From positions 1-21,481 of the forward strand of contig NZ_FUWK01000044.1 of assembly GCF_900167395.1 (NCBI RefSeq): 21,481 nt of DNA. The letters are read 5' to 3'. Both the position numbers and the translations under genes were made by a program. This document shows, in pieces, positions 993-21,481 of this stretch (the stretch's first letter is position 1; every line of letters starts with the position of its first letter). Source of the DNA: Nitrosomonas europaea (GTDB lineage: Bacteria > Pseudomonadota > Gammaproteobacteria > Burkholderiales > Nitrosomonadaceae). A model generated the notes under the pieces. It was not told the origin of the DNA. It worked only from the letters and a program-made list of their open reading frames with translations, and searched no databases.

Positions 993-1006
993 CTTCTTTT
1001 CCCTGG

Positions 1007-1954: not shown

Positions 1955-1992
1955 TTTCAATGTCCTCCCCACCGATCAAGAGCGGACGCAAC

Positions 1993-2183: not shown

Positions 2184-2233
2184 TTCCGCAACAATCCGTA
2201 CAAGCATTCGCTAACCCGAACGAGCCAGCCAGG

Positions 2234-3139
2234 ATGTCGAACGAACAGCTTGCAGATCTAACCCAGCCACAACGCGACCGGCTCGCGTTTGTGGAGTTGC
2301 GCGTGCGCTTCATCGGGGAGATACGCCGTCAGGACTTGGTTACGCGGTTTGGCATCCAGTCCGCCGCCGCATCCAGGGATCTGGCGCTGTACAAAGAGTT
2401 GGCCCCGGGCAACATCGATTACGACTCCAAGGGCAAGTCCTACGTCCTGGGGCCGGACTTCCGGCCCGTCTTCGACTTCCCCCCGGAGCGGGTGCTGTCG
2501 TGGCTAACCCAGGGCTTTGGCGATGGCGAGCCGATGCGGCTCAAGGCGTGGGTGGCCAGCGAGAGCCCGTCACGGCTCACGCATCCGGATCTGGATGTGC
2601 TTGCGAGCGTGACCCGTGCGATTCACCAGGAGTGTCCGCTCGGCATCGAGTACCACTCCATCTCCAGTGGCCGCACCGAGCGGGAAATCGTCCCGTTTGC
2701 GCTGATCGACAACGGCCTGCGCTGGCATGTGCGCGCCTTCGACCGGAAGTCCCAAGAGTTCCGAGATTTCGTCATCACTCGGATCAAGCGCCCGGTCCTT
2801 ATAAGGGATGCAGAGGTGCAGTCCCATGAGCGCAGTGATCAGGACATCCAATGGACCCGGATCGTGGAGCTGGAGATGGTGCCGCACCCGGACCAGCCCC
2901 GTCCTGAAATTACGGAGATGGACTACGGCATGGTTCGCGGGTCACTGCGGATGAAGCTGCGTGCTGCCACCGCCGGATACATCTTGCGGCAGTGGAGCGT
3001 GGACTGCTCTCCGGACCACAGTCTGCGCGGTTACGAATTCAGGCTCTGGCTGAAAGATCACCTGGCGCTGTACGGCGTCAAGAACGCTGTGTTGGCGCCG
3101 GGCTACCGCTCGCCTGACCAAAATAAGGGAGAGCAATAA
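2234..3139 (+). CDS. WYL-domain transcriptional regulator (wHTH-WYL-C-terminal extension; BrxR/CapW-like)
   Basis: The N-terminal wHTH reads RDRLAFVELRVRFIGEIRRQDLVTRFGIQSAAASRDLALYKE. The central WYL-type strand reads PFALIDNGLRWHVRAFD. At about 300 aa it matches the size of BrxR/CapW-class regulators. It is divergent from the CBASS pair and 1 nt upstream of the next gene. Confidence 0.85.
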   Translation: MSNEQLADLTQPQRDRLAFVELRVRFIGEIRRQDLVTRFGIQSAAASRDLALYKELAPGNIDYDSKGKSYVLGPDFRPVFDFPPERVLSWLTQGFGDGEPMRLKAWVASESPSRLTHPDLDVLASVTRAIHQECPLGIEYHSISSGRTEREIVPFALIDNGLRWHVRAFDRKSQEFRDFVITRIKRPVLIRDAEVQSHERSDQDIQWTRIVELEMVPHPDQPRPEITEMDYGMVRGSLRMKLRAATAGYILRQWSVDCSPDHSLRGYEFRLWLKDHLALYGVKNAVLAPGYRSPDQNKGEQ

Positions 3140-3140
3140 C

Positions 3141-5215: not shown

Positions 5216-5219
<4 letters not shown>
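3141..5219 (+). CDS. RecQ-family SF2 DNA helicase fused to a C-terminal ComF/GntX-like phosphoribosyltransferase domain
   Basis: GTG start. RecQ motifs present: QKTGWGKS (Walker A), [49 protein letters not shown]. The C-terminal ~200 aa carry [13 protein letters not shown]..., [23 protein letters not shown] and [12 protein letters not shown], a PRTase/ComFC-type acidic PRPP-loop pattern. Confidence 0.88.
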
Positions 5220-6625
<1,406 letters not shown>

Positions 6626-6690
6626 CTGATGAAGACCAAACAAGAACACAAGCCGCAGTGCGACGGCATTGATATAGAAGGGCCAAGCGT

Positions 6691-8225
6691 TTGAGCGATC
6701 AACACATCACACTCAGCCAGCTCGAAAGTCACCTCTGGGAGTCAGCCAACATCCTGCGTGGCCCGGTAGATGCGGCTGACTTCAAGACCTACATCTTCCC
6801 GCTGCTGTTCTTTAAGCGCATCTGCGACGTCTGGGACGAGGAGTACCAGGAGATCGTTGATGAGACCGGCGACGAGCAACTGGCCTGGTTCCCGGAGTCG
6901 CACCGCTTCCAGATCCCGGAAGACTGCCACTGGAACGACGTTCGCACCAAGGCCAGCAATGTCGGTACGGCCCTGCAGCGCGCGATGCGCGAGATTGAGA
7001 AAGCCAACCCCGACACCCTGTACGGCGTGTTCGGCGATGCCCAGTGGTCGAACAAGGACCGGCTGTCTGATGCCTTGCTCAAGGACCTGATCGAGCACTT
7101 CTCCAAGCTGCCGTTTGGCAACAAGAACGTCAGCTCGGACCTGCTCGGCGACGCCTACGAATACCTGATCAAGAAGTTCGCCGACGCCACCAACAAGAAG
7201 GCCGGCGAGTTCTACACCCCGCGCAGCGTCGTGCGGCTGATGATCGACATGCTCGATCCCAAAGAAGCCGAGACCATCTACGACCCGGCCTGCGGTACCG
7301 GCGGCATGTTGCTGGCCGCCGTGCAGCACGTGAAGGAACAGCATGGCGACGTGAAGCGGCTGTGGGGCAAGCTGTATGGACAAGAGAAGAACCTCACCAC
7401 CTCGTCCATCGCGCGCATGAACTTGTTCCTCCACGGCATCGAGGACTTCCAGGTGGTGCGCGGCGACACGCTGCGCAACCCGGCCTTCTTCGAGGTCGAC
7501 CGACTGGCCACCTTCGACTGCGTGATCGCCAACCCCCCTTTCTCGCTGGAAAAGTGGGGCGAGGACCTGTGGCTGAACGATCCCTTCGGCCGCAACTTTG
7601 CCGGCCTACCGCCCTCATCCAGCGGTGACTTCGCCTGGGTGCAACACATGGTCAAGTCGATGGCCGACGTCATCGGCCGGATGGCCGTGGTGTTGCCCCA
7701 GGGCGCCCTGTTCCGCAAAGGTGTGGAAGGCAGCATTCGCCAGAAGCTGCTGGAGATGGATCTGGTCGAAGCTGTCATCGGTTTGGCGCCAAATCTGTTC
7801 TACGGCACCGGCCTGGCCGCGTGCATCATGGTGTGCGCCAAGCGCAAGCCGGCCAAACACAAGAACAAGGTGCTGATCGCCGATGCGTCACGCCTGTTCC
7901 GCCGGGGTCGTGCGCAAAACCATCTGGAACCCGAGCACGCCACCGAAATCCTCAGCTGGTATCGCGGCTTTGCCGATGTGCAGGACGCAGTCCCGTGGTC
8001 AGTCTCGACGAGATCAAGGCCGAAGACTGGACGCTGAACATTTCGCGCTATGTCCTGCCGCCATTGCAAGAAGACATCCCACCGCTGCCCGATGCCATCG
8101 CGGCATTCAAGGACGCGCTCACCCGCTGCCGTGAAGCCGAAGAGCGGCTTGCGCAGGTCATGACTGAAGGGGGATGGCTCGACACCGTTCGCCCTGAGCC
8201 TGTCGAAGGGCGGGAGCAGGCATGA
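6691..8225 (+). pseudogene. hsdM: Type I R-M methyltransferase subunit HsdM, paralogue 1, frameshifted near its 3' end
   Basis: TTG start. The frame running 6691-8037 carries the HsdM N-domain plus EFYTPRSVV, DPACGTGGML and NPPF, then ends prematurely (…FADVQDAVPWSVSTRSRPKTGR*). The expected continuation VVSLDEIKAEDWTLNISRYVLPP... lies in another frame (track ORF 7821-8225). The shift maps to the CCC run at 7992-7994. The last codons (VRPEPVEG) are encoded by the left inverted repeat of the GIY-YIG cassette. Confidence 0.8.
8185..8209. repeat. Left 25-bp inverted repeat of the GIY-YIG cassette (CCGTTCGCCCTGAGCCTGTCGAAGG)
   Basis: Its reverse complement matches 8502-8526 at 23 of 25 positions (hand alignment). 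Confidence 0.85.
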
Positions 8226-8533
8226 TGAGCTTCTGGGTATACATGCTGCGATGCAGTGACGATAGTTACTACACCGGCCATACCGACGATCTCCAGGGTC
8301 GGATCGCTCAGCATGACACGGGAGCGTTCCCAACGTGCTTTACGTTCAAACGTCGCCCGGTTGAACTGGTGTTTGCTCAAGAACACGCAACCCGAGAAGA
8401 GGCGCTTGCCTCAGAGCAACAAATCAAGGGCTGGAGTCGCAAGAAGAAGGCCGCAATGATTCGTGGTGATTGGGCTGAAGTATCACGATTGGCCCGTTCA
8501 TCCTTCGACAAGCTCAGGACGAACGGACTATGA
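8222..8533 (+). CDS. Small GIY-YIG nuclease-family protein (UPF0213/YhbQ-like)
   Basis: FWVYMLRCSDDSYYTGHTDDLQGRIAQH is a GIY-YIG motif variant, followed by REEALASEQQIKGWSRKKKAAMI. There are 4-nt ATGA overlaps with hsdM paralogue 1 upstream and hsdM paralogue 2 downstream. Confidence 0.9.
   Translation: MMSFWVYMLRCSDDSYYTGHTDDLQGRIAQHDTGAFPTCFTFKRRPVELVFAQEHATREEALASEQQIKGWSRKKKAAMIRGDWAEVSRLARSSFDKLRTNGL
8502..8526. repeat. Right 25-bp inverted repeat of the GIY-YIG cassette (CCTTCGACAAGCTCAGGACGAACGG)
   Basis: Partner of 8185-8209. It encodes the SFDKLRTNG tail of the GIY-YIG ORF. Confidence 0.85.
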
Positions 8534-10044
8534 AACGCATCAGCCAACAAGAACTCGAAAGCTACCTGTGGGGCGCAGCCGTATTGCTTCGCGGCCTCAT
8601 CGACGCGGGTGACTACAAGCAGTTCATCTTCCCGCTGCTGTTCTACAAGCGGGTCTCGGATGTCTGGGACGAGGAATACCAGGCGGCGCTGGCCAACTCA
8701 GGCGGTGACCTCTCTTACGCGCAGTTCGCGGAGAACCACCGCTTCCAGATTCCCGCTGGCGCACACTGGAACGATGTGCGTCAAACACCGAAGAACGTGG
8801 GCGCAGCTATTCAAAAGGCCATGCGCGCCATCGAAAGTGCCAACCCGGATCTGCTCGATGGCATCTTCGGCGATGCGCCGTGGACCAACCGCGAGCGCCT
8901 GCCCGATGAAACGCTGAAAAACCTGATCGAGCACTTTTCGACACAGACACTCTCGGTGGCCAACGTCCCCGAGGATGAGCTGGGCAACGCCTACGAGTAC
9001 CTGATCAAGAAGTTCGCGGATGATTCCGGCCACACGGCGGCCGAGTTCTATACCAACCGCACCGTCGTCCACCTGATGACGCAGCTTCTAGCGCCGCAGG
9101 CCGGCGAGTCGATCTACGACCCCACCTGCGGCACCGGCGGCATGCTGATCTCGGCCTTAGATGAAGTAAAGCGCGCAGGCGGCGAATACCGCACGCTCAA
9201 GCTTTACGGGCAAGAGCGCAACCTCATCACCTCATCCATCGCCCGAATGAACCTGTTCCTGCACGGCGTGGAAGACTTCGAGATCATCCGGGGTGACACC
9301 TTGGCCGAACCCAAGCACATCGAAGGCGACCGCTTGCGTCAGTTCGATGTGATCCTGGCCAACCCGCCGTACTCCATCAAGCAGTGGAATCGCGAGGCCT
9401 GGAGCAGTGACAAGTGGGGCCGCAACTCCCTGGGTACACCGCCGCAGGGCCGCGCCGATTACGCCTTCCAGCAGCACATCCTGACCAGCCTCACCGCCAA
9501 GGGGCGCTGCGCCGTGCTCTGGCCCCACGGCGTGCTGTTCCGTAACGAAGAACAGTCCATGCGCGCCAAGATGGTCGAGCAGGACTGGGTCGAGGCTGTC
9601 ATCGGCTTGGGCCCCAACCTGTTCTACAACTCCCCGATGGAGTCGTGCATTGTCATCTGCAACCGCAAGAAGGCCGCCGCTCGCAAGGGCAAGGTGATCT
9701 TCATCGACGCGGTGAATGAGGTCGCCCGGGAGCGGGCGCAGAGCTTTCTGAAGCCCGAGCACCAGCAGCGCATCCTGACCGCTTACAAGACGTTTGCCGA
9801 TGTGCCCGGTTTCGCCAAGGTCGCCACCCTGGCCGAGATCGGCGCCAATGCGGGCAACCTCTCGATCCCGCTGTACGTGAAGCGCATTGCCGCCGCCATC
9901 GCCACCGACAGCAATGATGACGCGGTATCGCTGCGCTCAGCCTGGGATCAATGGCAAGCCGACGGTCGCGCCTTCTGGCAACAGATGGATGCGCTGGTCG
10001 AAACGCTCGATGGCCTCGTCGCTCAGGAGGCAGCCGATGCGTAG
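8530..10044 (+). CDS. hsdM: Type I R-M methyltransferase subunit HsdM, paralogue 2 (intact)
   Basis: Full-length HsdM with LESYLWGAAVLLRG N-domain, DPTCGTGGML (SAM binding) and NPPY (catalytic). It is collinear with paralogue 1 but clearly diverged. It has EFYTNRTVV where paralogue 1 has EFYTPRSVV. Confidence 0.95.
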   Translation: MKRISQQELESYLWGAAVLLRGLIDAGDYKQFIFPLLFYKRVSDVWDEEYQAALANSGGDLSYAQFAENHRFQIPAGAHWNDVRQTPKNVGAAIQKAMRAIESANPDLLDGIFGDAPWTNRERLPDETLKNLIEHFSTQTLSVANVPEDELGNAYEYLIKKFADDSGHTAAEFYTNRTVVHLMTQLLAPQAGESIYDPTCGTGGMLISALDEVKRAGGEYRTLKLYGQERNLITSSIARMNLFLHGVEDFEIIRGDTLAEPKHIEGDRLRQFDVILANPPYSIKQWNREAWSSDKWGRNSLGTPPQGRADYAFQQHILTSLTAKGRCAVLWPHGVLFRNEEQSMRAKMVEQDWVEAVIGLGPNLFYNSPMESCIVICNRKKAAARKGKVIFIDAVNEVARERAQSFLKPEHQQRILTAYKTFADVPGFAKVATLAEIGANAGNLSIPLYVKRIAAAIATDSNDDAVSLRSAWDQWQADGRAFWQQMDALVETLDGLVAQEAADA

Positions 10045-11923
10045 CGCTACCGATCTACTGGATGAACTCAATGCGGTGGACGAGTCTGCCCGTATCGAAG
10101 CCAAGCGTGCCAGCGACATGGGTAAATCGGTGATGGAAACGGTCATCGCCTTTGCCAACGAGCCCGGCCTGGATGGCGGCTACCTGCTACTGGGCGTGGA
10201 CTGGGCGATCAACGACAAGGGCGATACCGTGTACCGGCCGGTGGGGTTGCCCGATCCGGACAAGGTGCAGCGTGATCTCGCCAGCCAGTGTGCCAGCATG
10301 CTCAACGTCGCTCTGCGGCCAGAGATGCAGTTGGAGCAGGTGGGTGGCAAGACGCTGCTGGTGGTGTATGTGCCCGAGGCTGACGTCACTCACAAACCCA
10401 TCTACAAAAAAGCCACGGGCCTACCAGGCGGCGCTTACCGCCGCATCGGCTCAAGCGACCAGCGCTGCGTCGATGAAGACCTCTGGGTGTTGCGTGGTGA
10501 AAGCCAGCCCTTGCATGGCCCTGATTCAAGCATTCTTTCTGATGCCCGCGCCGACGACTTTGACCCGACCGCCATTGCCGCGTATCGGCGTGAGCGTGCC
10601 CGCATCAACCCCCAGGCCGAAGAGCTGGACTATGGCGACGAAGACATGCTCGAAGCGCTGGGGGCACTAAGGCGTGTGGATGGTGTTTTGCAACCCACAT
10701 TGGCTGGCATCGTTTTGTTCGGTAAACCGCTAGCTTTGCGCAGATTGCTGCCCATGGTGCGTATTGACTACATACGTGTACCGGGCAACGAATGGGTCGA
10801 AGATCCAGAAAATCGCTTCCAATCCATCGACATCCGCAAGCCCCTGATGCTGGCATTGCCGCTCGCCGAAGCCAGCATTATTGATGAGCTACCTAAAGGC
10901 TTTCGCCTGCCAGAGGGCCAGCTACAGAGCGTGCAAGAGCCCATTCTGCCGCGCAAGGTGATCCGCGAGGCGCTGGCCAATGCCGCCATGCACCGCAACT
11001 ACACCCTGCACAGCCCGACGCAGATCATTCGCTACAGCAACCGCATCGAAATTCGTAACGTCGGCTACTCCCTCAAGGAGCCAGCGCAGCTGGGCTTGCC
11101 AGGTTCACGTCTGCGCAACCCAGCCATTGCAGCAGTGCTGCATGATCTGCATCTGGCCGAAGCCAAGGGTACGGGGATTCGTGCCATGCGTCGCCTGGCT
11201 GCAGATGCAGGCTTGCCGCTGCCAGAGTTCCACTCAGACCGGCAGGCCAATGAATTTAAGCTCACTCTGTTTCTGCACAACCTGCTCACCGAAGAAGACC
11301 ACACCTGGCTGCGCAATTATGCCGGCAGCACACTGGGCCCCGACGAAGCCAAGGTGCTGATCTATGTGCGGGCAACCGGCGCGGTGGATAACACCGCCTG
11401 CCGCGACTTCTGTGGCTCGGATACCCTGGCCGCCAGCATGGTACTGCGCCGGCTGCGCGACCGGGGCCTGCTTGAGAAGCGGGGTGCAGGCAGTCGCACC
11501 TATTACACCCTGGCCGGTAATGAGCCTCGTCCGACTCTGGAGAGCGCACAGTCAGAGCTGCCGTTGGATGTCCCCGCAGACACCCCTCCTGTTGGCCAGC
11601 CTCAGCCTGCAGAGGCGGTAGCGGGCCAGCAAGCATGCAACCCTCAGCTTGCAACCTTGCCGCCTGAGCTTGCAACCTTACTTGCAACCTTGCAGGGCCG
11701 GATCAGCAGCGAAGCCTTGCGTGACGGCATCCGCCGCCTGTGCCAGTGGGCGCCCCAGAGCGGTGATCAACTTGCAACCTTGCTGGGAAAAGACCGCGAC
11801 TACCTGCGCAACAAACACCTAATACCCATGGTGCGTGACGGCCAATTACGTTTCCGCTACCCGGAAAGCGCCAAACACCCACACCAGGCGTATGTCGCCC
11901 CAGAGGACAAGCGTAATGATTGA
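10037..11923 (+). CDS. AlbA_2 (Schlafen-type DNA-binding) plus HATPase_c_4-like putative regulator, COG2865-type, embedded in the type I R-M operon
   Basis: ATG 10037 is preferred over the track start 9887, which lies inside hsdM. It overlaps the hsdM stop as ATGCGTAG. The N-terminus ESARIEAKRASDMGKSVMETVIAFANEPGLDGGYLLLGV is AlbA_2-like. The central REALANAAMHRNY...NRIEIRNVG...GTGIRAM is HATPase_c_4-like. The C-terminus has wHTH-like segments. Confidence 0.8.
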   Translation: MRSATDLLDELNAVDESARIEAKRASDMGKSVMETVIAFANEPGLDGGYLLLGVDWAINDKGDTVYRPVGLPDPDKVQRDLASQCASMLNVALRPEMQLEQVGGKTLLVVYVPEADVTHKPIYKKATGLPGGAYRRIGSSDQRCVDEDLWVLRGESQPLHGPDSSILSDARADDFDPTAIAAYRRERARINPQAEELDYGDEDMLEALGALRRVDGVLQPTLAGIVLFGKPLALRRLLPMVRIDYIRVPGNEWVEDPENRFQSIDIRKPLMLALPLAEASIIDELPKGFRLPEGQLQSVQEPILPRKVIREALANAAMHRNYTLHSPTQIIRYSNRIEIRNVGYSLKEPAQLGLPGSRLRNPAIAAVLHDLHLAEAKGTGIRAMRRLAADAGLPLPEFHSDRQANEFKLTLFLHNLLTEEDHTWLRNYAGSTLGPDEAKVLIYVRATGAVDNTACRDFCGSDTLAASMVLRRLRDRGLLEKRGAGSRTYYTLAGNEPRPTLESAQSELPLDVPADTPPVGQPQPAEAVAGQQACNPQLATLPPELATLLATLQGRISSEALRDGIRRLCQWAPQSGDQLATLLGKDRDYLRNKHLIPMVRDGQLRFRYPESAKHPHQAYVAPEDKRND

Positions 11924-13106
11924 AAGGGACTTAAAGCCTGGCTGGCGTCGAGTGAAGTTTGGCGATGTGGTCCGCCAATGCAAAGAGAAGGCCGATCCCG
12001 AGACCTCTGGCCTTGAGCGTTACATCGCTGGTGACCATATGGACACCGACGACCTTCGACTCCGTCGCTGGGGTGAGATTGGCTCGGGTTACTTGGGGCC
12101 AGCCTTCCACATGCGCTTCAAGCCCGGACAAGTTCTCTATGGCTCGCGCAGAACCTATCTGCGAAAGGTGGCGGTAGCTGATTTTGAAGGTATCTGTGCG
12201 AACACGACCTTCGTGTTGGAGCCGCATAACCCCAATGAACTTCTGCCGGAGTTTCTGCCGTTCCTGATGCAGACTGAGGCATTCAACGACTTCTCGGTTA
12301 AGAACTCAAAGGGATCAGTCAATCCCTACATCAACTTTTCTGATTTGGCGAAGTTTGAGTTTGTACTGCCACCCATTGATGAGCAGCAATCAGCCATAGC
12401 CCTACTAAGCGCCGCAACCGACCAGTGCCATGCCGTCGAAGCTGCACATCGCGCTGCAGGCCGGATGCTGCAGTCGTTCAAGGATTCACTGCTTCTGCGC
12501 AAAACATCGTCCTTAGCAAATTCCTTTCTCCTGGGCGACCTCTTATTGAGGTCACCGGAAAGCGGCTGCAGTGCGCCGCCAAAGGATGCCGACACAGGCT
12601 ATTTCGTACTCGGATTGGCTGCACTGTCTCGCGATGGATATGTATCAGGGGACTTCAAGCCCGTCGAGCCAACAAGCAAGATGGTCGCGGCAAAACTCTC
12701 TATGGGCGACATGCTGATTTCTCGCTCCAATACAGTGGATCGAGTTGGGTTCGTTGGGATTTTCAGCGATAACCGTGATGACGTGTCCTTTCCGGACACG
12801 ATGATGCGTCTCCAGCCAAACCCTGCACTGGTTCACCCGCATTTCTTGGAGGCCTTGTTACAGACCACATCTGCCCGCGAATTCCTAATGCGAATTGCAG
12901 CGGGCACCAGTGCGAGCATGAAGAAGATCAATCGTGCCAACCTGCTGCAGATGCGCTTGAACGTGCCGGATCTTGATGTCCAGGAAATGGCGCTCGATGA
13001 ACTGCAGCAATTTAAAAACGCGATTGCAACGCAAAAGGCACGCTGGGATGCCGCGCGGCAGCTAACAAGACTCATTGCCATGAGAACAATTGGGGGAGCG
13101 GCATAG
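11916..13106 (+). CDS. hsdS: Type I R-M specificity subunit HsdS (two target-recognition domains)
   Basis: ATG 11916 (MIERDLKPGWRRVKFGDV...) overlaps the upstream stop as ATGATTGA. The track start 11835 lies inside the upstream gene. It has two TRD-like halves separated by a conserved helical spacer (LPPIDEQQSAIALLSAATDQ...) and a second spacer at the C-terminus. It looks AT-richer than its neighbours, as is usual for hsdS. Confidence 0.9.
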   Translation: MIERDLKPGWRRVKFGDVVRQCKEKADPETSGLERYIAGDHMDTDDLRLRRWGEIGSGYLGPAFHMRFKPGQVLYGSRRTYLRKVAVADFEGICANTTFVLEPHNPNELLPEFLPFLMQTEAFNDFSVKNSKGSVNPYINFSDLAKFEFVLPPIDEQQSAIALLSAATDQCHAVEAAHRAAGRMLQSFKDSLLLRKTSSLANSFLLGDLLLRSPESGCSAPPKDADTGYFVLGLAALSRDGYVSGDFKPVEPTSKMVAAKLSMGDMLISRSNTVDRVGFVGIFSDNRDDVSFPDTMMRLQPNPALVHPHFLEALLQTTSAREFLMRIAAGTSASMKKINRANLLQMRLNVPDLDVQEMALDELQQFKNAIATQKARWDAARQLTRLIAMRTIGGAA

Positions 13107-16105
13107 TGTTTAACGAATCCAACACCGTCGAAGCCTATGTCCGCGATCTGCTCGCCGGCCCAATCAAGGCGGTTCCGGTCAACACCGCCCAGGAACCTCA
13201 AGCCAGCTATGGTCCCAGCCCCAAAGGCGTTGGCTGGCGCTACGCTGCTCCGTCTGAGGTGCCGCGCCAGAATCAGGAAGTGCTGGTCGAGCCGTGGCTG
13301 CGCGAGGCGCTGATTCGGCTGAACCCGGAGATTGCCGCCCAGCCCGACCGCGCCGACGAGGTGCTCTACAAGTTGCGCGCCATCGTGCTCTCGGTGCGAT
13401 CGGATGGGCTGATCCGCGCCAACGAGGAAATGACCGCGTGGATGCGCGGTGAGCGCTCGATGCCCTTCGGCGCCAACAACGAGCATGTGCCGGTGCGGCT
13501 GATCGACCTGGATGATCTGTCGCAAAACCACTACATCGTCACCCAACAATACACCTACCGTGCTGGCCCCACCGAACGCCGGGCTGATCTGGTGCTGCTG
13601 GTGAATGGCCTGCCGCTGGTACTGATCGAGGCCAAGACGCCGGTCAAGAAGTGCATCAGCTGGGTCGACGCTGCGGTGCAGGTGCACGACGACTACGAGA
13701 AATTCGTGCCGGAGCTGTTCGTTTGCAACGTGTTCTCGGTGGCCACCGAGGGCAAGGCGTACCGCTATGGCTCCATTGGGCTACCAGTCAAGGACTGGGG
13801 GCCGTGGCATCTGGATGGTGATGGCGAGGATGGTCAGCACCATCCGCTGAAGTCGCTCAAGCTGTCGGCCGAGAGCATGCTGCGCCCGCATGTGGTGCTG
13901 GATATTCTGGGCAGCTTCACGCTGTTTGCCACCAACAAGAAAAAGCAGCGCATCAAGATCATTTGTCGCTACCAGCAGTTTGAAGCGGCCAACAAGATCG
14001 TCGAGCGCGTGCTGGCCGGTTACCCCAGGAAAGGGCTGATCTGGCACTTCCAGGGTTCGGGCAAGTCGCTGCTGATGGTGTTTGCCGCGCAGAAGCTGCG
14101 CATGCATGCCGGCCTAAAGAATCCCACCGTGCTGATCGTGGTGGACCGGATCGATCTCGACAGCCAGATCACGGGTACGTTCACCGGGGCGGACATTCCC
14201 AATCTGGAAAAGGCGGATACCCGCGAGAAGCTGCAGCAGCTGCTGGCGCAGGACGTGCGCAAGATCATCATCACCACGATCTTCAAGTTCGGCGAGGCGC
14301 CCAACGGAAAATCGGGCAGCCTGAACGACCGCAGCAACATCATCGCCCTGGTGGACGAAGCCCATCGCACGCAAGAAGGTGATCTGGGCCGCAAGATGCG
14401 TGAGGCCCTGCCCAACGCGTTTCTGTTCGGCCTGACCGGTACGCCGATCAACCGCGCCGACCGCAACACCTTCTACGCCTTCGGTGCCGACGAGGACGAA
14501 AAGGGCTACATGAGCCGGTACGGCTTCGAAGAGTCGATCCGCGACGGTGCCACGCTGAAACTGCACTTCGAACCGCGCTTGATCGATCTGCACATCGACA
14601 AGGCAGCGCTGGACGCCGCCTACAAAGACCTGACCGGCGGCCTGTCGGATCTCGACAAGGACAACCTCGCAAAGACCGCCGCCAAGATGGCCGTGCTGGT
14701 GAAGACGCCCGAGCGCATCCGCAAAGTCTGTGAGGACATCGTCGAGCACTTCCAGACCAAGGTGGAGCCCAACGGCTTCAAGGGCCAGATCGTCACCTTC
14801 GACCGGGAATCCTGCCTGCTGTTCAAGGCCGAGCTGGACAAGCTGCTGCCGCCCGAGGCCACGGACATCGTCATGTCGGTGCAGGCGGCGGACAAGAAGG
14901 AACATCCAGAGTACGCGCCCTACGACCGAAGCCGCGACGAAGAAGAACGACTGCTGGATCGCTTCCGCGACCCGGCCGACCCGCTGAAGCTGATCATTGT
15001 CACGGCCAAGCTGCTGACCGGCTTCGACGCGCCGATCTTGCAGGCCATGTACCTGGACAAGCCGCTGCGGGACCACACGCTGCTGCAGGCCATCTGCCGA
15101 GTGAACCGCACCTACTCCGAACAGAAGACCCACGGCCTGATCGTCGACTACCTCGGCATCTTCGATGACGTGGCGGCAGCGCTGGAATTCGACGACCAGA
15201 GCGTCAAGCAGGTGGTGAGCAACATTCAGGAGCTGAAGGACAAGCTGCCCGAAGCCATGCAGAAATGCCTGGCCTTCTTTGCCGGCTGCGACCGCAGCGT
15301 GCAAGGCTATGAGGGCCTGATCGCCGCGCAGCAGTGTCTGCCCAATAACGAGGTAAGAGACAACTTTGCCGCTGAGTACAGCGTGCTCAACAAGATCTGG
15401 GAGGCGCTGTCACCGGACACCGTTCTGGGCCCCTTCGAAAAGGACTACAAGTGGTTGTCGCAGGTGTACCAGTCGGTGCAGCCCTCCAGTGGCCACGGCA
15501 AGCTGATCTGGCACTCGCTGGGCGCCAAGACCATCGAGCTGATCCACCAGAACGTGCATGTGGACGCCGTGCGGGATGACCTCGACACCCTGGTGCTGGA
15601 CGCTGATCTGCTGGAGGCCGTGCTGTCGAACCCCGACCCGAAGAAGGCCAAGGAGATCGAGATCAAGCTCAAGCGCCGGCTGCGCGGGCATGGCGGCAAC
15701 CCCAAGTTCAAGAAGCTGTCGGAGCGGCTCGATGCGCTAAAGGACCGGTTCGAGTCTGGCCAGATCAACAGCGTCGAGTTTCTGAAGCAGTTGCTGGAGA
15801 TCGCCAAGGAGACGCTGCAAGCCGAGAAGGAGGTCCCGCCTGAAGAGGACGAGGATCGCGGCAAGGCGGCGCTCACCGAACTATTCAACGAGATCAAGAC
15901 GGCCGAGACGCCCATCATGGTCGAACGCGTGGTCGCGGACATCGACGAGATTGTGCGACTGGTCCGTTTCCCGGGCTGGCAAGGCACGCAGGCCGGTGAG
16001 CGTGAAGTCAAGAAGGCCCTGCGCAAAGCCCTCTTCAAATACAAGCTGCATGCGGATGAAGAGCTGTTCGAGAAGGCCTACAGCTACATCCGGCAGTATT
16101 ACTAA
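13106..16105 (+). CDS. hsdR: Type I restriction enzyme R subunit HsdR (nuclease plus SF2 translocase)
   Basis: GTG start overlaps the hsdS TAG by 1 nt. PD-(D/E)xK region: RADLVLLVNGLPLVLIEAKTP. Helicase motifs: HFQGSGKSLLM, ALVDEAHRTQ, FGLTGTP, TAKLLTGFDAP, QAICRVNR. Length 999 aa. Confidence 0.95.
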   Translation: MFNESNTVEAYVRDLLAGPIKAVPVNTAQEPQASYGPSPKGVGWRYAAPSEVPRQNQEVLVEPWLREALIRLNPEIAAQPDRADEVLYKLRAIVLSVRSDGLIRANEEMTAWMRGERSMPFGANNEHVPVRLIDLDDLSQNHYIVTQQYTYRAGPTERRADLVLLVNGLPLVLIEAKTPVKKCISWVDAAVQVHDDYEKFVPELFVCNVFSVATEGKAYRYGSIGLPVKDWGPWHLDGDGEDGQHHPLKSLKLSAESMLRPHVVLDILGSFTLFATNKKKQRIKIICRYQQFEAANKIVERVLAGYPRKGLIWHFQGSGKSLLMVFAAQKLRMHAGLKNPTVLIVVDRIDLDSQITGTFTGADIPNLEKADTREKLQQLLAQDVRKIIITTIFKFGEAPNGKSGSLNDRSNIIALVDEAHRTQEGDLGRKMREALPNAFLFGLTGTPINRADRNTFYAFGADEDEKGYMSRYGFEESIRDGATLKLHFEPRLIDLHIDKAALDAAYKDLTGGLSDLDKDNLAKTAAKMAVLVKTPERIRKVCEDIVEHFQTKVEPNGFKGQIVTFDRESCLLFKAELDKLLPPEATDIVMSVQAADKKEHPEYAPYDRSRDEEERLLDRFRDPADPLKLIIVTAKLLTGFDAPILQAMYLDKPLRDHTLLQAICRVNRTYSEQKTHGLIVDYLGIFDDVAAALEFDDQSVKQVVSNIQELKDKLPEAMQKCLAFFAGCDRSVQGYEGLIAAQQCLPNNEVRDNFAAEYSVLNKIWEALSPDTVLGPFEKDYKWLSQVYQSVQPSSGHGKLIWHSLGAKTIELIHQNVHVDAVRDDLDTLVLDADLLEAVLSNPDPKKAKEIEIKLKRRLRGHGGNPKFKKLSERLDALKDRFESGQINSVEFLKQLLEIAKETLQAEKEVPPEEDEDRGKAALTELFNEIKTAETPIMVERVVADIDEIVRLVRFPGWQGTQAGEREVKKALRKALFKYKLHADEELFEKAYSYIRQYY

Positions 16106-16117
16106 AGGGGGCGGGGG

Positions 16118-18340
16118 ATGACCACTCAGACGATAGATAGTGCACCGCATGCAACCTGGTTTGTCGGCGCCAGCTACGGCGGTACCGATGATCAGATGCC
16201 GCGATTTCTTGCGGAAGGAATTTGGGAGAACGGCTACGACGACAAGCTCCTCGAAGTGGTGCGTTCCATGCGCCCGGGAGAGCGGATCGCCATCAAGTCG
16301 TCTTACACGCGAAAGCACGGTCTGCCTTTCGATAGCCGAGGCCGAGCGGTTTCGGTTATGGGCATCAAGGCGGTCGGCACGATCACTGAAAACCTGAACG
16401 ACGGGAAGCGGGTGAAGGTGGACTGGGCCAAGGTCGAGCCAGTACGGGAGTGGTACTTCTACACTCACCGAGCAACGATCTGGCGTGTGCTGCCCGGCGA
16501 ATGGATGAACGATGCGCTGATTGCATTTGCGTTTGACGGCAAGCCGCAGGATGTAGATCGCTTTCGCAACGAGCCCTTTTGGCGGGAGCGTTACGGCACG
16601 ACTTCGCCAGAAAAGCAGCGCTTCGAGTGGACGGACTTCTACGAGGCAGTGGCCGAAAAGCTGCTGGCCCACGCAGACGATCGAACTCCGCTCATCGAGG
16701 GCATCCACGAGATCGCGTCCCGGGTGCCGGGGCTGACCTATCTCCAGGATAAGTTTCCTGATGGAACCAGTGGTCCGCTGCGGGACATTTGCCCATTCAC
16801 CACGATGGGCACCTTTAACCGATCCATGACCGATGCCAACCGCAAGACCCTCGCGGGTGAACTTGCCAAGCTGCTGGGTGTCACGGTGCCGGTCCCGCCT
16901 TCATTCGAGGGCATCCCCGTCCTCAACAACCAACGCTCCTGGTTTTTCGCCTATGCCGACAAGCGTGGTGCGGGCGACATCGACGCGCTATGGAAGGTAT
17001 TCGTTGCCGCGAGCAAGATGGTCGATGGCGACCAGTTGGACACTCGCGATGCCTTCATCCGGGCTTATGATGAGGCAACCCAAGTGTGGGGTGTCGCATG
17101 GAACCTTTCGACAGGTCTCTACTGGGCGCATCCGTGGGAATTCCTGACCTTGGATAGCCAGTCGCGCCACTACATCAACAAGCGGCTCGGCCTGAATGTC
17201 GCCATCAGTGGTCAGCAAGGCCCATGTGATGGTCGGGCCTATTTGAAGCTGCTGGACGATTTGCGTTCGCGCTTCGGCGAAGACGGCTATCCCGTCCACA
17301 GTTTCCCGGACTTGTCTCTTGCGTCCTGGATGTACAAAGACCCGGTTGACGAGCCTGTGCCGGCTGGCGATATCGGTACCAATGCCGGAGCCGAACAGGA
17401 AACTGAAGGCGAAGTTCGCGAAGCCTTTCAGGTGGCAGCGCCAATCGTTCCCTACTCGGTGGAGGACATCCTCAAGGACGGCTGTTTCCTGGAGCGGGCC
17501 GAGATTGACCGCTTGCTCGATCGTCTGCGCACAAAAAAGAACCTCATCCTTCAGGGGCCTCCGGGCACGGGCAAGACCTGGCTGGCCAAACGGCTCGCGT
17601 TCGCGCTCATGGGCCAGAAGGACGACAGCAAGGTCCGTGCAGTGCAGTTCCACCCCAACCTGTCCTACGAGGACTTTGTTCGAGGGTGGCGCCCCACTGG
17701 CGAAGGCAAGTTGTCGCTGGCGGACGGCGTCTTCATGGAAGCTATCAAGGCCGCATCGAAGGACCCTTCGTCGAAGTTTGTCGTGGTGATCGAGGAGATC
17801 AACCGTGGCAACCCGGCGCAGATCTTCGGCGAGTTGCTGACGCTGCTTGAGGCCGGCAAACGGACACCCAACGAAGCGCTGGAACTCTGCTATCCGGATG
17901 CGGACGGCAAACGCCGTCCCGTCCATATTCCCGAGAATCTCTATGTGGTCGGCACCATGAATATCGCCGACCGATCACTTGCACTGGTCGATCTGGCATT
18001 GCGTCGCCGCTTTGCTTTCGTTGGGCTGGAGCCAAGACTGGGCCAGGTTTGGCGGGATTGGGTGGTCAAGGAGTGTGCTGTCGATCCGGGTTTGGTCGCG
18101 GATATCGAGCGCCGTATCGCCGAGCTGAACGACCAGATCGCGGCGGACGCGCGCCTTGGCAAGCAATTCCGAATTGGTCACAGCTATGTGACCCCTGCAC
18201 ATCGACTGGAAGCCGGAGACACGAAGAAGTGGTTCCTGCAGGTCGTGGAAACGGAGATCGGCCCGTTGCTGGATGAATACTGGTTCGACGCGCCCGACGA
18301 AGCACAAAAGGCGATTGCACGGCTGACGCAGGGCTGGTGA
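16118..18340 (+). CDS. mcrB: McrB-like AAA+ GTPase subunit of a type IV (modification-dependent) restriction system, with a ~470-aa N-terminal extension
   Basis: McrB signatures: LILQGPPGTGKTW, VVVIEEINRGNPAQIFGELLTLLE, VGTMNIADRSLALVDLALRRRFAF. The N-terminal ~150 aa look like a small beta-barrel reader (RPGERIAIKSSY...VMGIKAVGTITEN...VKVDW). The start lies 12 nt after the hsdR stop, behind a GGGGGCGGGGG ribosome-binding site. Confidence 0.9.
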   Translation: MTTQTIDSAPHATWFVGASYGGTDDQMPRFLAEGIWENGYDDKLLEVVRSMRPGERIAIKSSYTRKHGLPFDSRGRAVSVMGIKAVGTITENLNDGKRVKVDWAKVEPVREWYFYTHRATIWRVLPGEWMNDALIAFAFDGKPQDVDRFRNEPFWRERYGTTSPEKQRFEWTDFYEAVAEKLLAHADDRTPLIEGIHEIASRVPGLTYLQDKFPDGTSGPLRDICPFTTMGTFNRSMTDANRKTLAGELAKLLGVTVPVPPSFEGIPVLNNQRSWFFAYADKRGAGDIDALWKVFVAASKMVDGDQLDTRDAFIRAYDEATQVWGVAWNLSTGLYWAHPWEFLTLDSQSRHYINKRLGLNVAISGQQGPCDGRAYLKLLDDLRSRFGEDGYPVHSFPDLSLASWMYKDPVDEPVPAGDIGTNAGAEQETEGEVREAFQVAAPIVPYSVEDILKDGCFLERAEIDRLLDRLRTKKNLILQGPPGTGKTWLAKRLAFALMGQKDDSKVRAVQFHPNLSYEDFVRGWRPTGEGKLSLADGVFMEAIKAASKDPSSKFVVVIEEINRGNPAQIFGELLTLLEAGKRTPNEALELCYPDADGKRRPVHIPENLYVVGTMNIADRSLALVDLALRRRFAFVGLEPRLGQVWRDWVVKECAVDPGLVADIERRIAELNDQIAADARLGKQFRIGHSYVTPAHRLEAGDTKKWFLQVVETEIGPLLDEYWFDAPDEAQKAIARLTQGW

Positions 18341-19476
18341 TGACCGCCGTCGCAGAACAGGAGGAAAGTGCATCCAACAGCGCTGAGGGGTTCATCGGAC
18401 GCATTCCGGTGCGCAACCTCTGGCTGCTGATGCTCTACGCCTCTGACCTGTTCCGCACTCGCGGCATCGGCAAGATCGGCTTGGAAGACAGCCCGGACGA
18501 TCTACCGGATCTAGTCGCGGAGATCCTTGCCCACGCGGTTGAGGTGCGACAGCGTCGCCGCTTGAGTCTTGGATATCGATCTCGTGATGCAGTCATCAAT
18601 CGCGTGCGTGGCCGGATCGACGTCCTGACCACCGAACGCCATCAGTTGATGGATAGAGGCCTGGTGGCGTGCTGGTTCGACGAACTCACCATCGACACCC
18701 CACGCAATCGTTTCGTCCGAGCAGCCTTGGAGTCCATCTCCAGGATCGTTCAGAGGAAGGACGTTGCCCATCGGTGCCGCGCACTTGCGGGTGGCATGAA
18801 GGCAATGGGTGTATCAGGGGATGCACCGGCCCGCGCCCAAATGAGCACCGATCGCTTCGGCCGTAACGATGCGGACGACCGGTTCATGGTGGCAGCCGCA
18901 AAGCTGGCACTCGATCTGGCACTGCCTACGGAAGCGTCGGGTGCGAATGTGCTCTCTCTGCCGGACCGAGAAGCGACATGGGTACGCCGTTTGTTCGAGC
19001 GAGCGGTGGGCGGCTTCTACGAAGTCGTATTGAGTCCGCAGGGCTGGCGGGTGCTATGCGGCGGGACGATGGGCTGGCAGATCGAGCAGAGGACAGCAGG
19101 GATCGACAAGATCCTGCCGACGATGCGAACTGATGTCGTGCTCGACCACCCGTCAACCGGACAAAGGATCGTCATCGATACCAAGTTCACCTCGATTGTG
19201 ACAAGCGGTTGGTACCGTGAGGAAACCCTGCGCAGCGGATACGTGTACCAGATCTACGCCTATCTGCGCTCCCAGGTTGGGTGCGGCGATGCGCTTGCAG
19301 ATCACGCGAGTGGATTGTTGTTGCATCCCGCGATCGGCCAGATGGTCGACGAGACGGCTGTCATCCAAGGGCATCGCATTCGTTTCGCCACCGTGGATCT
19401 GACTGCGTCGACGTCGGATATTCGATTGCAACTGCTGCGATTCTTTGACCCGAACCAGCCAGTGACAGGCCAGTGA
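18337..19476 (+). CDS. mcrC: McrC-like nuclease subunit
   Basis: The start overlaps the mcrB stop (GTG 18337 or ATG 18340). McrC-type motifs: VRGRIDVLTTERHQLMDRGLVACWFDELTIDTPRNRFVRAAL. A PD-(D/E)xK-like core follows: MRTDVVLDH...IVIDTKFTS...YQIYAYL. Confidence 0.85.
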   Translation: MMTAVAEQEESASNSAEGFIGRIPVRNLWLLMLYASDLFRTRGIGKIGLEDSPDDLPDLVAEILAHAVEVRQRRRLSLGYRSRDAVINRVRGRIDVLTTERHQLMDRGLVACWFDELTIDTPRNRFVRAALESISRIVQRKDVAHRCRALAGGMKAMGVSGDAPARAQMSTDRFGRNDADDRFMVAAAKLALDLALPTEASGANVLSLPDREATWVRRLFERAVGGFYEVVLSPQGWRVLCGGTMGWQIEQRTAGIDKILPTMRTDVVLDHPSTGQRIVIDTKFTSIVTSGWYREETLRSGYVYQIYAYLRSQVGCGDALADHASGLLLHPAIGQMVDETAVIQGHRIRFATVDLTASTSDIRLQLLRFFDPNQPVTGQ

Positions 19477-20495
19477 AGAGCATGGATCGAATCGGCATCG
19501 ACACATGGGCAAACATCAGCGCTGAAGGTTGGAGCTCCCTCCTTTTGGGCAACGGCGCCAGCATTGCCATCCACAAGGAGTTCGCATACCCAACACTCCA
19601 TGGCATTGCTGATGCAAAAGGACTGCTCGCCACTACTGCCCCAATATTCGCCAAGCTCGGGACAACCGACTTCGAGCATGTTCTGCTGGCGTGCTGGTAT
19701 GCCGAGCACGTCAACGGGGCATTGGGGACGCCGTCGGCCGCCATCTCCGCAGCCTATGAGGAGGTCCGTACCGCACTGATCGAAGCTGTGCACAGTGTGC
19801 ATCCGGTGCATGCCGATGTTGCCGCCGACCTACAAAGGGTCGGTGCGTTTGCAAGCGCGTTTCCCACGGTCGTCAGCCTGAACTACGACATCACCTTGTA
19901 CTGGGCCATGCTGCTGTTCAACGCGGCGAACGGGAGTTGGTTCAAGGACGCATTCCACGACGGGGAGTTCCAGACGGATTGGGAATATCTGCGGCGACCC
20001 TATGGGCACGCTGCAGGAGCAACATTGGTTTTCTACCCTCACGGCAGTCTTGCGGTTGCTCGTGACTACCTTGGTGATGAGACAAAGCTTTCTGTAGGCG
20101 CGGGAGCCGCAGGTGACTTGCTTGGCACCATAACCCGGAGGTGGGCGTCCGGGCACTATGTGCCCGTGTTTGTTAGCGAGGGAACCAGTCATCAGAAGGT
20201 CGCTGCGATTCGCCGAAGTCACTACCTGACGAACGTATATGAAGAGGTGCTGCCCGCCCTTGGAGAGAGCCTGGTCGTCTATGGCTGGAGCTTTGACGAG
20301 CGAGACCAGCATGTGCTCGCTGCCATCGCAGCGAATCCGCCAAAGCGAATGGCCGTCTCGGTTTTCACTGGTCAGCCAGATGGAGATCAGCAAGCGTTCT
20401 GCCTTCAGGTACTCAAGGCCGTTGGCCGGTCCTTGCCTGGCACAGAGGTCACGTTCTTCGATTCGCGGAGCCCTGGATGCTGGAACAATCCATGA
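19473..20495 (+). CDS. DUF4917 / SIR2_2-like Rossmann protein, translationally coupled to mcrC
   Basis: The start (GTG 19473 or ATG 19482) overlaps or abuts the mcrC stop at 19474-19476. The motif order is SLLLGNGASIA ... VVSLNYD ... VFYPHGSL ... PVFVSEGTSHQKVAAIRRSHYL ... VVYGWSFDERDQHVL. This matches my recollection of DUF4917/SIR2-like families. The assignment is by eye only. Confidence 0.6.
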   Translation: MKSMDRIGIDTWANISAEGWSSLLLGNGASIAIHKEFAYPTLHGIADAKGLLATTAPIFAKLGTTDFEHVLLACWYAEHVNGALGTPSAAISAAYEEVRTALIEAVHSVHPVHADVAADLQRVGAFASAFPTVVSLNYDITLYWAMLLFNAANGSWFKDAFHDGEFQTDWEYLRRPYGHAAGATLVFYPHGSLAVARDYLGDETKLSVGAGAAGDLLGTITRRWASGHYVPVFVSEGTSHQKVAAIRRSHYLTNVYEEVLPALGESLVVYGWSFDERDQHVLAAIAANPPKRMAVSVFTGQPDGDQQAFCLQVLKAVGRSLPGTEVTFFDSRSPGCWNNP

Positions 20496-20509
20496 TGAGG
20501 TGCTGAACA

Positions 20510-21010
20510 CTACTGCTCGCCGGCAACCTTCATCTCCCTTACCCACGCTTGCAACGCCGTTAGTTGCTCGGCGTTCTCGTGGCAGGTTTGGTAGTTGGCA
20601 GCAACGGTTCCGGCGACGGCAGAGAGCGCAATGCCTGTGGCGGCCGCATCAGCATCTCGGGCGGGCTCGGGCAGTTCACCGGCGGCGGCAGCGTCGTGCA
20701 GGCGCACAAAGCCACGGTTGATAGTGCAAGCAGAATCGGCTTGAACGGGCACATAGACAAGAACCTCCTTGATGATGGTTTCGCCCTTCTCGCGAACGAT
20801 GCGAACGCGGTCGACGTACTCGGTGACGACCTTGACGGTGGCCTGCGCCTGCCGTTCGCGGACGGCGGCGGCTTGCAGGGCTTGTTGCTGGATGGCGGCA
20901 TCCCATTGCGCTTGAACGTGGCTCGCACCCTTGATCCAGCCGAAGCCAACCAGGGCGACGCTGAGCGCCGCGAGGGTCAGCAGCCGGTACGGCCACGGAA
21001 TCACGCTCAC
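20510..21010 (-). CDS. Phage Rz-like i-spanin
   Basis: GTG 21010 overlaps the lysozyme stop as GTGA, with GGGGAGG just upstream. The product is MSVIPWPYRLLTLAALSVALVGFGW (N-terminal TM) followed by a Q/A-rich coiled-coil region. The longer track ORF (to 21403) is out-of-frame overlap with the lysozyme gene. Confidence 0.75.
   Translation of the reverse strand: MSVIPWPYRLLTLAALSVALVGFGWIKGASHVQAQWDAAIQQQALQAAAVRERQAQATVKVVTEYVDRVRIVREKGETIIKEVLVYVPVQADSACTINRGFVRLHDAAAAGELPEPARDADAAATGIALSAVAGTVAANYQTCHENAEQLTALQAWVREMKVAGEQ
20560..20754 (-). CDS. Rz1-like o-spanin lipoprotein, fully embedded in the +1 frame of Rz
   Basis: ATG at 20754 gives MCPFKPILLALSTVALCAC-TTLPPPVNCPSPPEMLMRPPQ..., a signal peptide with a lipobox-like LCAC and a short proline-rich mature part. 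This is the lambda Rz/Rz1 embedded architecture. Confidence 0.6.
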   Translation of the reverse strand: MCPFKPILLALSTVALCACTTLPPPVNCPSPPEMLMRPPQALRSLPSPEPLLPTTKPATRTPSN

Positions 21011-21411
21011 GACGCCTCCCCGATGCACTGCCGGTATTCGGCTTCTCGCCGAGTAGCCAGCCCGCCGCACAGCCGCGCGTTGGTGGGCAGCGCGCAGTCT
21101 TTGCCCTGGAAGAAGCGCCAGCGCAGCAGTTCGGCGCAGGCCCCGGCGTAGTCCTCCGCATTGAGTTTCATGACCAGCGTGGATTGGCAGAACGCGCGGC
21201 TGCCGACGTTGTAGGAGAAGCTCACCAGCGCGTCGTACTCGTGCTGGGCCAGGGGCACGGTCACACATTGCTTGAGCGCTCCCTCGAATTGCTGTACGTC
21301 GGTGAGCGCCCGAGCCAGCGCCTTCGGAGGCGTGGTCGTGTCGCCCAGCTTCACCCCGGTGGTGGTACCGAACCTGATGGTCGGCACTGAACCGTCCCGA
21401 CAATCGAGGAG
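21007..21411 (-). pseudogene. GH24 phage lysozyme (P22 gp19 / P21 R type), 5'-truncated
   Basis: ...VPTIRFGTTTGV...VPLAQHEYDALVSFSYNVGSRAFCQSTLVMKLNAEDYAGACAELLRW...TRREAEYRQC aligns with T4/P22-type lysozymes from the PTIGxGHT segment onward. The N-terminal catalytic Glu segment (EGxxLxxY) is absent. The homologous frame runs into AT-rich DNA at about 21412 and hits an in-frame TAA at 21421-21423. Only a GTG at 21387 is available as a start. Confidence 0.75.
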
Positions 21412-21481
21412 GCTATTTGGTTAAAGTAAAATATCCATCAATGTCTTATTATCCTGGGTTTGTCGGTAGTTTTCTTCAGCC
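21412..21481. other. AT-rich segment of unknown origin abutting the truncated lysozyme (possible end of another inserted element, or the 3' end of a minus-strand gene)
   Basis: By direct count about one third G+C over the last ~68 nt, against GC-rich flanking DNA. The minus strand reads ...AEENYRQTQDNKTLMDILL* and ends at 21421. This is too short to identify. Confidence 0.3.

Follow-up and report, generated by a model that had tools for sequence, protein, structure and literature searches.

The window analyzed here is a 21,481-nucleotide stretch of Nitrosomonas europaea DNA (contig NZ_FUWK01000044.1). It contains a defense island in which a gene of the DUF4917 family directly follows mcrB and mcrC (Table 1). 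On balance, this third gene is best read as a modular and probably autonomous SIR2-fold, NAD-dependent effector, which forms the last co-transcribed gene behind a two-gene McrBC system. The gene is an optional, swappable add-on at a prophage-adjacent hotspot and is not an obligate third subunit of McrBC. The original prediction had proposed a three-component hybrid of McrBC and a SIR2-like protein. The comparison of related loci lends little support to a dedicated hybrid, since mcrBC and DUF4917 are each found intact, and under purifying selection, where the other is missing. The same DUF4917 lineage also ends GmrSD, BREX and PglZ operons, and the family is catalogued as a single-gene candidate.

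About 240 related loci were compared (labelled up to L240). Their gene calls are our own greedy open reading frame (ORF) calls; neighbors were identified by tblastn and phmmer with the window proteins and by limited Pfam scans, and divergent McrBC-like or other defense genes may be missed. The DUF4917-seeded set has 79 loci, one genome per species, and is divided into a close subfamily (at least 81% identity) and distant homologues (37-47%). The mcrB-mcrC pair is directly upstream in 8 of the 21 informative close loci, and the remaining 13 are without mcrBC. Upstream of these unlinked copies are a BREX operon, PglX-PglZ-BrxL (L024), a SNF2 helicase-PglZ-240aa operon (L013, L017), a DUF1156 methylase with DUF499 (L031), GmrSD with a 72-aa ORF (L032, L033), or transposase or integrase debris (L010 and the metagenome and genome contigs L003-L005). 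One lineage with 81-96% identity is found as the last gene behind several kinds of operon, or alone.

The second set was seeded with McrC and consists of metagenome contigs with mcrC of at least 66% identity; neither this set nor the IMG/VR set described below is an independent sample of evolution. DUF4917 is downstream of 19 of 67 close mcrC genes (three of the 19 are remnants), the other 48 have none, and 13 further loci are uninformative. In 13 of the 48 that lack DUF4917, the convergent lysozyme flank otherwise found after DUF4917 directly adjoins mcrC, which is a clean presence/absence polymorphism of the gene. No alternative co-oriented third gene recurs behind mcrC in the DUF4917-less loci. 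The predicted synteny of the gene with mcrC does recur in other genomes, but it is facultative in both directions. The order hsdR-mcrB-mcrC-DUF4917 of the window is repeated in L001, L012 and L029, and the mcrB-mcrC-DUF4917 triad recurs in at least three upstream contexts, namely type I restriction-modification (R-M), Z1-Vsr and PglZ. In L007 (positions 1-9014) the triad follows a HATPase_c_3-Z1-DUF4420-Vsr cluster on an element with the F-type conjugation genes TraG, TraH, TraF and TraN; therefore, the triad is also carried by conjugative elements.

Among the distant homologues, mcrBC is upstream in 1 of 55 loci (L071). Six distant loci have the order hsdM-hsdS-DUF4917-(0-2 genes)-hsdR, with stop/start overlaps in L048 and L062. 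A similar hsdS-DUF4917-hsdR slot is present in L053, L055, L067 and L069, and also in L227 and L229. A Pfam census of the genes within two positions of DUF4917 in 52 distant loci found HsdM (9), HsdS (6), HsdR (3) and integrase (3). The remainder are mostly single occurrences of largely housekeeping families, and there is no dominant partner. L069 (positions 5085-16200) is a composite operon, hsdM-hsdS-DUF4917-mcrB-like (896 aa)-mcrC-like (443 aa)-hsdR, in which DUF4917 has independently come together with genes of both type I and McrBC type. Its mcrC-like gene is probably the single Pfam McrBC match of the census (E=4e-99).

A neighbor-joining tree of 33 unique close DUF4917 sequences interleaves linked and unlinked copies, with the linked copies basal. 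In the junction alignments, homology between contexts starts only about 10-15 nt before the ATG, except in L013, L017, L022 and L025. These four keep 45-70 nt of the mcrC 3' end before an intact DUF4917 gene without mcrBC (z=5-20 against shuffles). A weaker mcrC-tail remnant is present in the GmrSD-72aa lineage (z=4-6 against shuffles). A candidate remnant before the BrxL-linked copies was rejected by the shuffling controls (z<1.5). Judged from these alignments, the DUF4917 gene has on several occasions stayed behind or changed place. The ratio of nonsynonymous to synonymous substitution rates (dN/dS) is 0.06-0.12 for unlinked pairs, with one outlier of 0.36, compared to 0.07-0.15 for linked pairs. 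Therefore, purifying selection on DUF4917 persists without McrBC. Truncated, frameshifted or remnant copies are found in L016, L031, L033, L092, L095, L163 and L240, and some are only 41-105 residues long. Several remnants are directly behind an intact mcrC, so the third gene appears to have been lost repeatedly. Frequent truncated copies are as expected for a costly defense gene.

The assignment of the third gene to DUF4917 was borne out. The Pfam PF16263 match (E=2.3e-76; 257.6 bits, cut-off 28) spans the whole profile, positions 1-311 of 311, and the PADLOC PDC-S21 model PDLC04961 matches with E=6.2e-101. The five motifs noted earlier (LLLGNGASIA, SLNYD, FYPHGSL, VSEGTSHQK and YGWSFDERDQH) are all present in the translation and sit on family-invariant positions. 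A broad family alignment was made of 81 DUF4917 sequences with 33-91% identity, and residues are numbered from the ATG at 19482. The invariant or nearly invariant residues are G23, N24, G25, N134, Y135, D136, H187, G188, K202, K239, G268, D275 and H277. The window protein is full length and carries every invariant one. The family comprises 2039 clusters at 50% identity that match at E<=1e-3; the best 150 of these 2039 cluster representatives are mostly 320-370 aa, which is single-domain length. An exact-sequence lookup of the window protein gave no match, as did tblastn against GenBank phages. Megablast of the module against plasmids returned a 72% AAA fragment only.

The earlier claim that the protein is SIR2_2-like holds for its fold, but SIR2_2 similarity was not reproduced at the sequence level. 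Neither Pfam SIR2 nor SIR2_2 matches the protein at E<=1, and no PADLOC SIR2-family model matches it. Sequence-profile searches of the PDB with both family alignments returned noise only. Alignment of the family profile to Sir2Tm (the Thermotoga Sir2, sequence verified as 1yc5) with hhalign gave a probability of 5%, which is not significant. A first AF2 model was built from 28 sequences at >=67% identity and had a predicted local distance difference test score (pLDDT) of 68 and one marginal Foldseek match, KomBC; it was replaced. The model from the 81-sequence alignment has a pLDDT of 96 and a predicted template modeling score of 0.93. At E<=1e-3 it has 38 Foldseek matches in the PDB, and every one is a defense sirtuin. 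The best is SIR2-HerA (8sub_E, E=1.9e-9, TMq 0.53), followed by PsSIR2, KomC, BcThsA and DSR2. A SIR2-type Rossmann fold is thus supported by the predicted structure.

The conserved residues are located at the ends of strands in this model. Strand 19-22 is followed by G23-N24-G25, strand 129-132 by N134-Y135-D136, strand 181-184 by P186-H187-G188 and strand 227-230 by E233-G234-T235-S236. Sirtuins carry GAGxS, TQNID, HG and GTS/GSS in the NAD pocket. The order of the motifs and their placement after strands appear to agree with this series. TQNID and HG are present in the verified Sir2Tm sequence and would be, by motif order and secondary structure, the counterparts of N134-x-D136 and H187-G188. 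Canonical sirtuin deacetylases of class I-IV/U have a Zn-binding Cys4 small domain. No invariant or nearly invariant cysteine is found across the 81 diverse members, and in the model only helices make up the insert that separates beta1 from beta2 (residues ~39-124). Since there is no Cys4 zinc module, the protein appears to resemble the NADase-type defense sirtuins more than the deacetylases.

The first two genes proved to be a bona fide McrBC pair, with McrB motor and McrC equivalog matches and overlapping genes. A McrB-type AAA+ GTPase and a McrC PD-(D/E)xK subunit are encoded in one operon. The mcrB product matches Pfam AAA_5 (E=3e-30) and E. coli McrB 6hz4 (E=3e-72), the latter confined to residues 445-733. 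The NCBIfam McrB model reaches 247 bits, below its cut-off of 637, and covers just the C-terminal half. Residues 1-440 (16118-17437) have no match in the local Pfam or PADLOC copies. McrB homologues carry the precomputed annotation PF28527 DUF8425 + AAA_5 + McrB_lid, so that the N-terminal region is of DUF8425 type in homologues. This 440-aa region is presumed to be the reader of DNA modification. It diverges much faster among relatives than the AAA+ part (46-99% compared to 69-100% identity), which suggests swapping of specificity domains. In L001 and L029 it is split into a 130-aa ORF and a 611-aa McrB. The mcrC product matches the NCBIfam McrC equivalog NF007277 (456 bits against a cut-off of 338), Pfam McrBC (E=3.8e-18) and E. 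coli McrC 6hz4_M (E=1.4e-16), and its TD...IVIDTKF aligns with TD...LIVDAKY of E. coli (D...D-x-K). By sequence, mcrB-mcrC encodes a canonical two-gene restriction enzyme of type IV, whose presumed N-terminal reader domain is not that of E. coli.

The ORF listing and the raw sequence agree with the three co-oriented, chained ORFs described earlier at 16118-20495. The 4-nt overlaps (GTGA at 18337-18340 and 19473-19476) are present as well, but both depend on choosing GTG starts. An in-frame ATG at 18340 is an alternative mcrC start with a 1-nt overlap with mcrB (TGATG), and an in-frame ATG at 19482 is an alternative start of the third gene, 5 nt past the mcrC stop. Of the 120 closest database proteins, most have 334-337 aa and the N-terminus MDRI... 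at the ATG. In an alignment of 33 junctions, L105 and L110 replace the GTG and keep the ATG. For these reasons ATG 19482 is the more likely start. In the L007/L008 lineage, where the ATG is missing, only the GTGA overlap can serve as the start.

Neither GTG 19473 nor ATG 19482 has a well-spaced Shine-Dalgarno on inspection, and the distance from mcrC is at most 5 nt whichever start is used; therefore, translation of the third gene by reinitiation after mcrC is plausible. Across the linked loci, the mcrC-DUF4917 gap ranges from -4 to +20 nt. A scan of 12800-21481 detected nothing promoter-like from hsdS through the end of DUF4917, nor were terminator-like sites in excess. The end of hsdR is 12 nt from the start of mcrB, and all gaps of the hsdMSR-mcrBC-DUF4917 array are at most 12 nt. 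Given the short distance between hsdR and mcrB, the type I array and mcrBC-DUF4917 are probably one transcription unit. Base composition gives no sign that DUF4917 is foreign relative to mcrBC (GC content at third codon positions 0.65 compared to 0.70-0.71).

The module is followed by convergent phage lysis genes. These genes (20510..21387) are the conserved right border of the hotspot. Two types of convergent flank occur downstream of DUF4917. Type A, that of the window, is an Rz-like spanin with a phage lysozyme; in type B another phage lysozyme precedes an ORF that was read from the sequence as holin-like and has no Pfam match. One or the other follows DUF4917, or directly follows mcrC, in dozens of loci. 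In the close DUF4917 lineage a convergent phage lysozyme is a near-constant neighbor where downstream sequence is present. On IMG/VR viral contigs the close subfamily was found 20 times: behind McrBC in 10 cases, GmrSD in six and BrxL in two. A lysozyme is detectable in 19 of these 20 loci and directly downstream in 18. The recurrent flank indicates that the mcrBC-DUF4917 module is cargo at a prophage-associated defense hotspot. Very distant viral homologues have a convergent lysozyme within ~3 kb in 16 of 51 loci, so the lysis-cassette association extends well beyond the subfamily of the window. These 16 (L206-L210, L213, L216, L218-L220, L228, L232, L233, L235, L236 and L239) are 25-29% identical and are located 0.5-2 kb upstream of the lysozyme. 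The last 94 bases of the window (21388-21481), past the lysis genes, drop abruptly to 41% GC.

These results lead us to picture a layered island. McrBC would restrict modified DNA, and the appended DUF4917 protein would add a second, abortive-infection-type layer that is active without McrBC. Going by the predicted fold and by analogy, the protein would consume NAD+ as an NADase, like SIR2-HerA, ThsA, DSR2 and KomC; an NAD-dependent transferase or deacylase is less likely. It would be expressed by read-through and termination-reinitiation from whichever DNA-targeting defense operon precedes it, which would be McrBC here and GmrSD, BREX or type I R-M elsewhere. Activation by oligomerization or filament formation, by a small molecule or by a phage protein might be expected, since the protein has no sensor domain and other defense sirtuins offer the analogy.

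Several points weigh against an autonomous NADase. The close-subfamily gene is almost always behind a DNA-level defense operon, and no promoter is evident for it alone, an arrangement for which a fully independent toxin-like gene would have no obvious need. On the 3' side of this McrBC clade, moreover, no co-oriented gene other than DUF4917 recurs. The linkage to McrBC is basal and widespread in the tree and, given the basal linked copies and the mcrC-tail remnants, looks ancestral for the close subfamily. For both reasons there may be some functional synergy with McrBC. The equivalence of the catalytic residues is drawn from motif order and secondary structure rather than from residue-level superposition. 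The NAD+ consumption of SliP, a Campylobacter jejuni family member, is modest and was reported as deacetylase-coupled. In the literature searched we found no paper testing DUF4917 in defense. In keeping with the original prediction, we also found no description of McrBC combined with DUF4917 there, including under PDC-S21, McrBC with SIR2 and McrBC with NADase. The family itself is already known from Pfam and, as a candidate, from PADLOC.

The alternative that survives best, and that we still consider unlikely, is modeled on PrrC. The DUF4917 protein would be held latent by, or signaled from, a co-encoded nucleoside triphosphate-dependent restriction machine, and would deplete NAD+ once this machine is engaged on foreign DNA or has been inactivated by a phage anti-restriction protein. 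This would account for the distant homologues in the prrC slot between hsdS and hsdR, the operon of sliP with hsdR in C. jejuni and the independent McrBC associations in L071 and L069. It also fits the close subfamily, in which every intact context is a DNA-targeting defense operon, and the junction without a well-placed ribosome-binding site, so that expression depends on the upstream gene. However, the 81-96% identical proteins are found behind unrelated partners (McrC, the 72-aa ORF after GmrSD, BrxL) or none, which disfavors a specific protein-protein interface. Copies without mcrBC are still under purifying selection, and about 80% of the distant family members lack a restriction gene in the two positions on either side. 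Slightly less likely still is a general "restriction sentinel" class, in which minimal DUF4917 SIR2 NADases co-translated with McrBC, GmrSD, type I R-M or BREX would fire when the system stalls on foreign DNA or is neutralized by a phage anti-restriction protein, as an NAD+-depleting, PrrC-like back-up spread largely by prophages.

It is improbable, and more so than either form of restriction-coupled control, that the protein modifies a protein or nucleic acid of phage or host, possibly McrBC, as an NAD-dependent deacylase or ADP-ribosyltransferase without killing the cell. Sirtuin folds support deacylation and ADP-ribosylation besides hydrolysis, and a SliP-like activity would be of this kind, since SliP was reported as an NAD+-dependent deacetylase. 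All significant structural neighbors are NADase-type defense sirtuins and not class I-IV deacetylases, and the conserved cysteines of a Cys4 zinc ribbon and profile similarity to Sir2Tm are both absent, as described above. The genomic context of defense islands and prophage cargo also argues against such a modifier, and the frequent truncated copies fit a costly gene.

Finally, a meaningless adjacency, in which the third ORF is a neighboring and possibly non-functional island gene with no role in the operon, would fit the common truncated copies and the facultative mcrBC linkage but is very improbable, given a full-length window copy with every invariant residue, a dN/dS of ~0.1, recurrence of the triad in at least three upstream contexts and a same-orientation spacing of at most 5 nt that implies co-expression.

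In keeping with a defense hotspot, the window also has other defense genes upstream of mcrBC (Table 1). PsyrT and PsyrA form a PsyrTA/RqlHI-type system with overlapping genes. A second copy of hsdM (6691-8037) looks cut short, and its C-terminal coding runs on in another frame to ~8225. It may be the frameshifted or displaced methylase of an older type I system. The 103-aa ORF at 8222-8533 looks by eye like a GIY-YIG/UPF0213 nuclease and has no PADLOC match. The Schlafen-AlbA_2/HATPase_c_4 gene is a further passenger inside the type I operon, and weakly resembles pAgo-associated N-terminal regions in PADLOC (E=1e-12).

Table 1. Features of the 21,481-nucleotide window, in order of position.
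Feature	Position	Strand	Remarks
SMODS/CD-NTase cyclase (CBASS-like)	249-992	-	PADLOC Cyclase E=7e-106
Patatin phospholipase effector (CBASS-like)	1007-1972	-	PADLOC Effector E=1.5e-165
WYL-domain regulator	2234-3139	+	
PsyrT, RecQ-like helicase toxin	3141-5219	+	E=1e-281
PsyrA, DprA/SLOG-like antitoxin	5216-6625	+	E=9e-143
Type I R-M array	8530..16105	+	hsdM 8530-10044, hsdS ~11916-13106, hsdR 13106-16105; Pfam matches
Schlafen-AlbA_2 + HATPase_c_4 gene	~10037-11923	+	Between hsdM and hsdS, 8-nt overlaps at both ends
mcrB	16118..18340	+	740 aa; 440-aa N-terminal region and McrB AAA+ GTPase motor (residues ~445-735)
mcrC	18337..19476	+	379 aa; PD-(D/E)xK nuclease subunit; start GTG 18337 or ATG 18340
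mcrC/DUF4917 junction GTGAAGAGCATG	19473..19484	+	mcrC stop TGA 19474-19476, alternative GTG 19473, conserved ATG 19482
DUF4917 / PADLOC PDC-S21 gene	19482..20495 (ATG, 337 aa) or 19473..20495 (GTG, 340 aa)	+	Single-domain protein with predicted SIR2 fold
Rz-like spanin	20510-21010	-	PHROGs signal-peptide/Rz-like spanin family
Phage lysozyme	21007-21387	-	PHROGs endolysin family; Pfam Phage_lysozyme E=2e-29

DUF4917 is a large family with a predicted sirtuin fold, and its sole functional study treats a member as a secreted virulence factor. The survey places the family in defense contexts: at the end of McrBC, GmrSD and BREX operons, inside type I R-M systems and beside prophage lysis cassettes. 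It is therefore argued to belong with the NAD-depleting defense sirtuins, and the interpretation of SliP in Campylobacter deserves a second look. Acting alone, the protein would rank among the smallest SIR2 defense modules, and one would have to ask what triggers a sirtuin that lacks a sensor. Dependence on the restriction neighbor would mean a new way in which restriction is tied to abortive infection; control by the restriction machine would be considerably more interesting, if true.

Compared to known systems, the first two genes are orthologous in kind to E. coli McrBC in both the AAA+ motor and McrC, and the genes overlap. Unlike in E. coli, the N-terminal 440 aa of McrB are unrelated to the 5mC-binding N-domain, and a third gene follows mcrC. 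The third protein has the single-domain length (~335 aa) and the invariant residues of PDC-S21/DUF4917, of which it is a full-length, high-scoring member. PDC-S21 is catalogued as a computational single-gene candidate, for which no published validation was found in the literature searched, whereas the gene here is operonic with mcrBC.

The prr locus (EcoprrI hsdM-hsdS-prrC-hsdR) also combines a restriction operon with an abortive-infection effector gene, embedded or appended. In distant loci DUF4917 takes the place of prrC between hsdS and hsdR, and the hsdMSR-mcrBC-DUF4917 array of the window likewise places the gene in a restriction operon. However, PrrC is an ABC-ATPase/anticodon nuclease, and control of DUF4917 by a restriction complex is purely hypothetical. 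ThsA of Thoeris, DSR2 and KomC of Kongming share the predicted fold class of the third protein (Foldseek E 4.5e-5 to 8.6e-4). All three are NAD+-depleting abortive-infection effectors. They carry or pair with a dedicated sensor, which is SLOG for gcADPR in ThsA, a C-terminal domain that binds the tail tube in DSR2 and KomB with dITP for KomC, whereas DUF4917 has no extra domain or fixed partner. The SIR2 subunit of SIR2-HerA (Nezha) is a defense NADase of similar size and the best structural match, with ~365 aligned columns, but it has only ~13% identity to the third protein. The NADase of SIR2-HerA is controlled through assembly with the HerA ATPase partner, and no HerA gene was found adjoining DUF4917 in the loci examined.

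A functional precedent is C. jejuni SliP (Cjj81176_0779), the only studied DUF4917 protein. By family assignment it is likened to the window protein in its Pfam family, its G-N-G NAD-phosphate loop and its restriction operon, in which sliP is with a type I hsdR, but it has no mcrBC neighbor. SliP consumes NAD+ and lowers it about 2-fold in vitro, mutagenesis showed that the G-N-G glycines are needed for activity, and NAD+-dependent deacetylation of acetyl-lysine peptides was reported for it. On the published interpretation, SliP is a virulence factor, a histone deacetylase secreted by way of the flagellum, and a likeness to sirtuins was already proposed.

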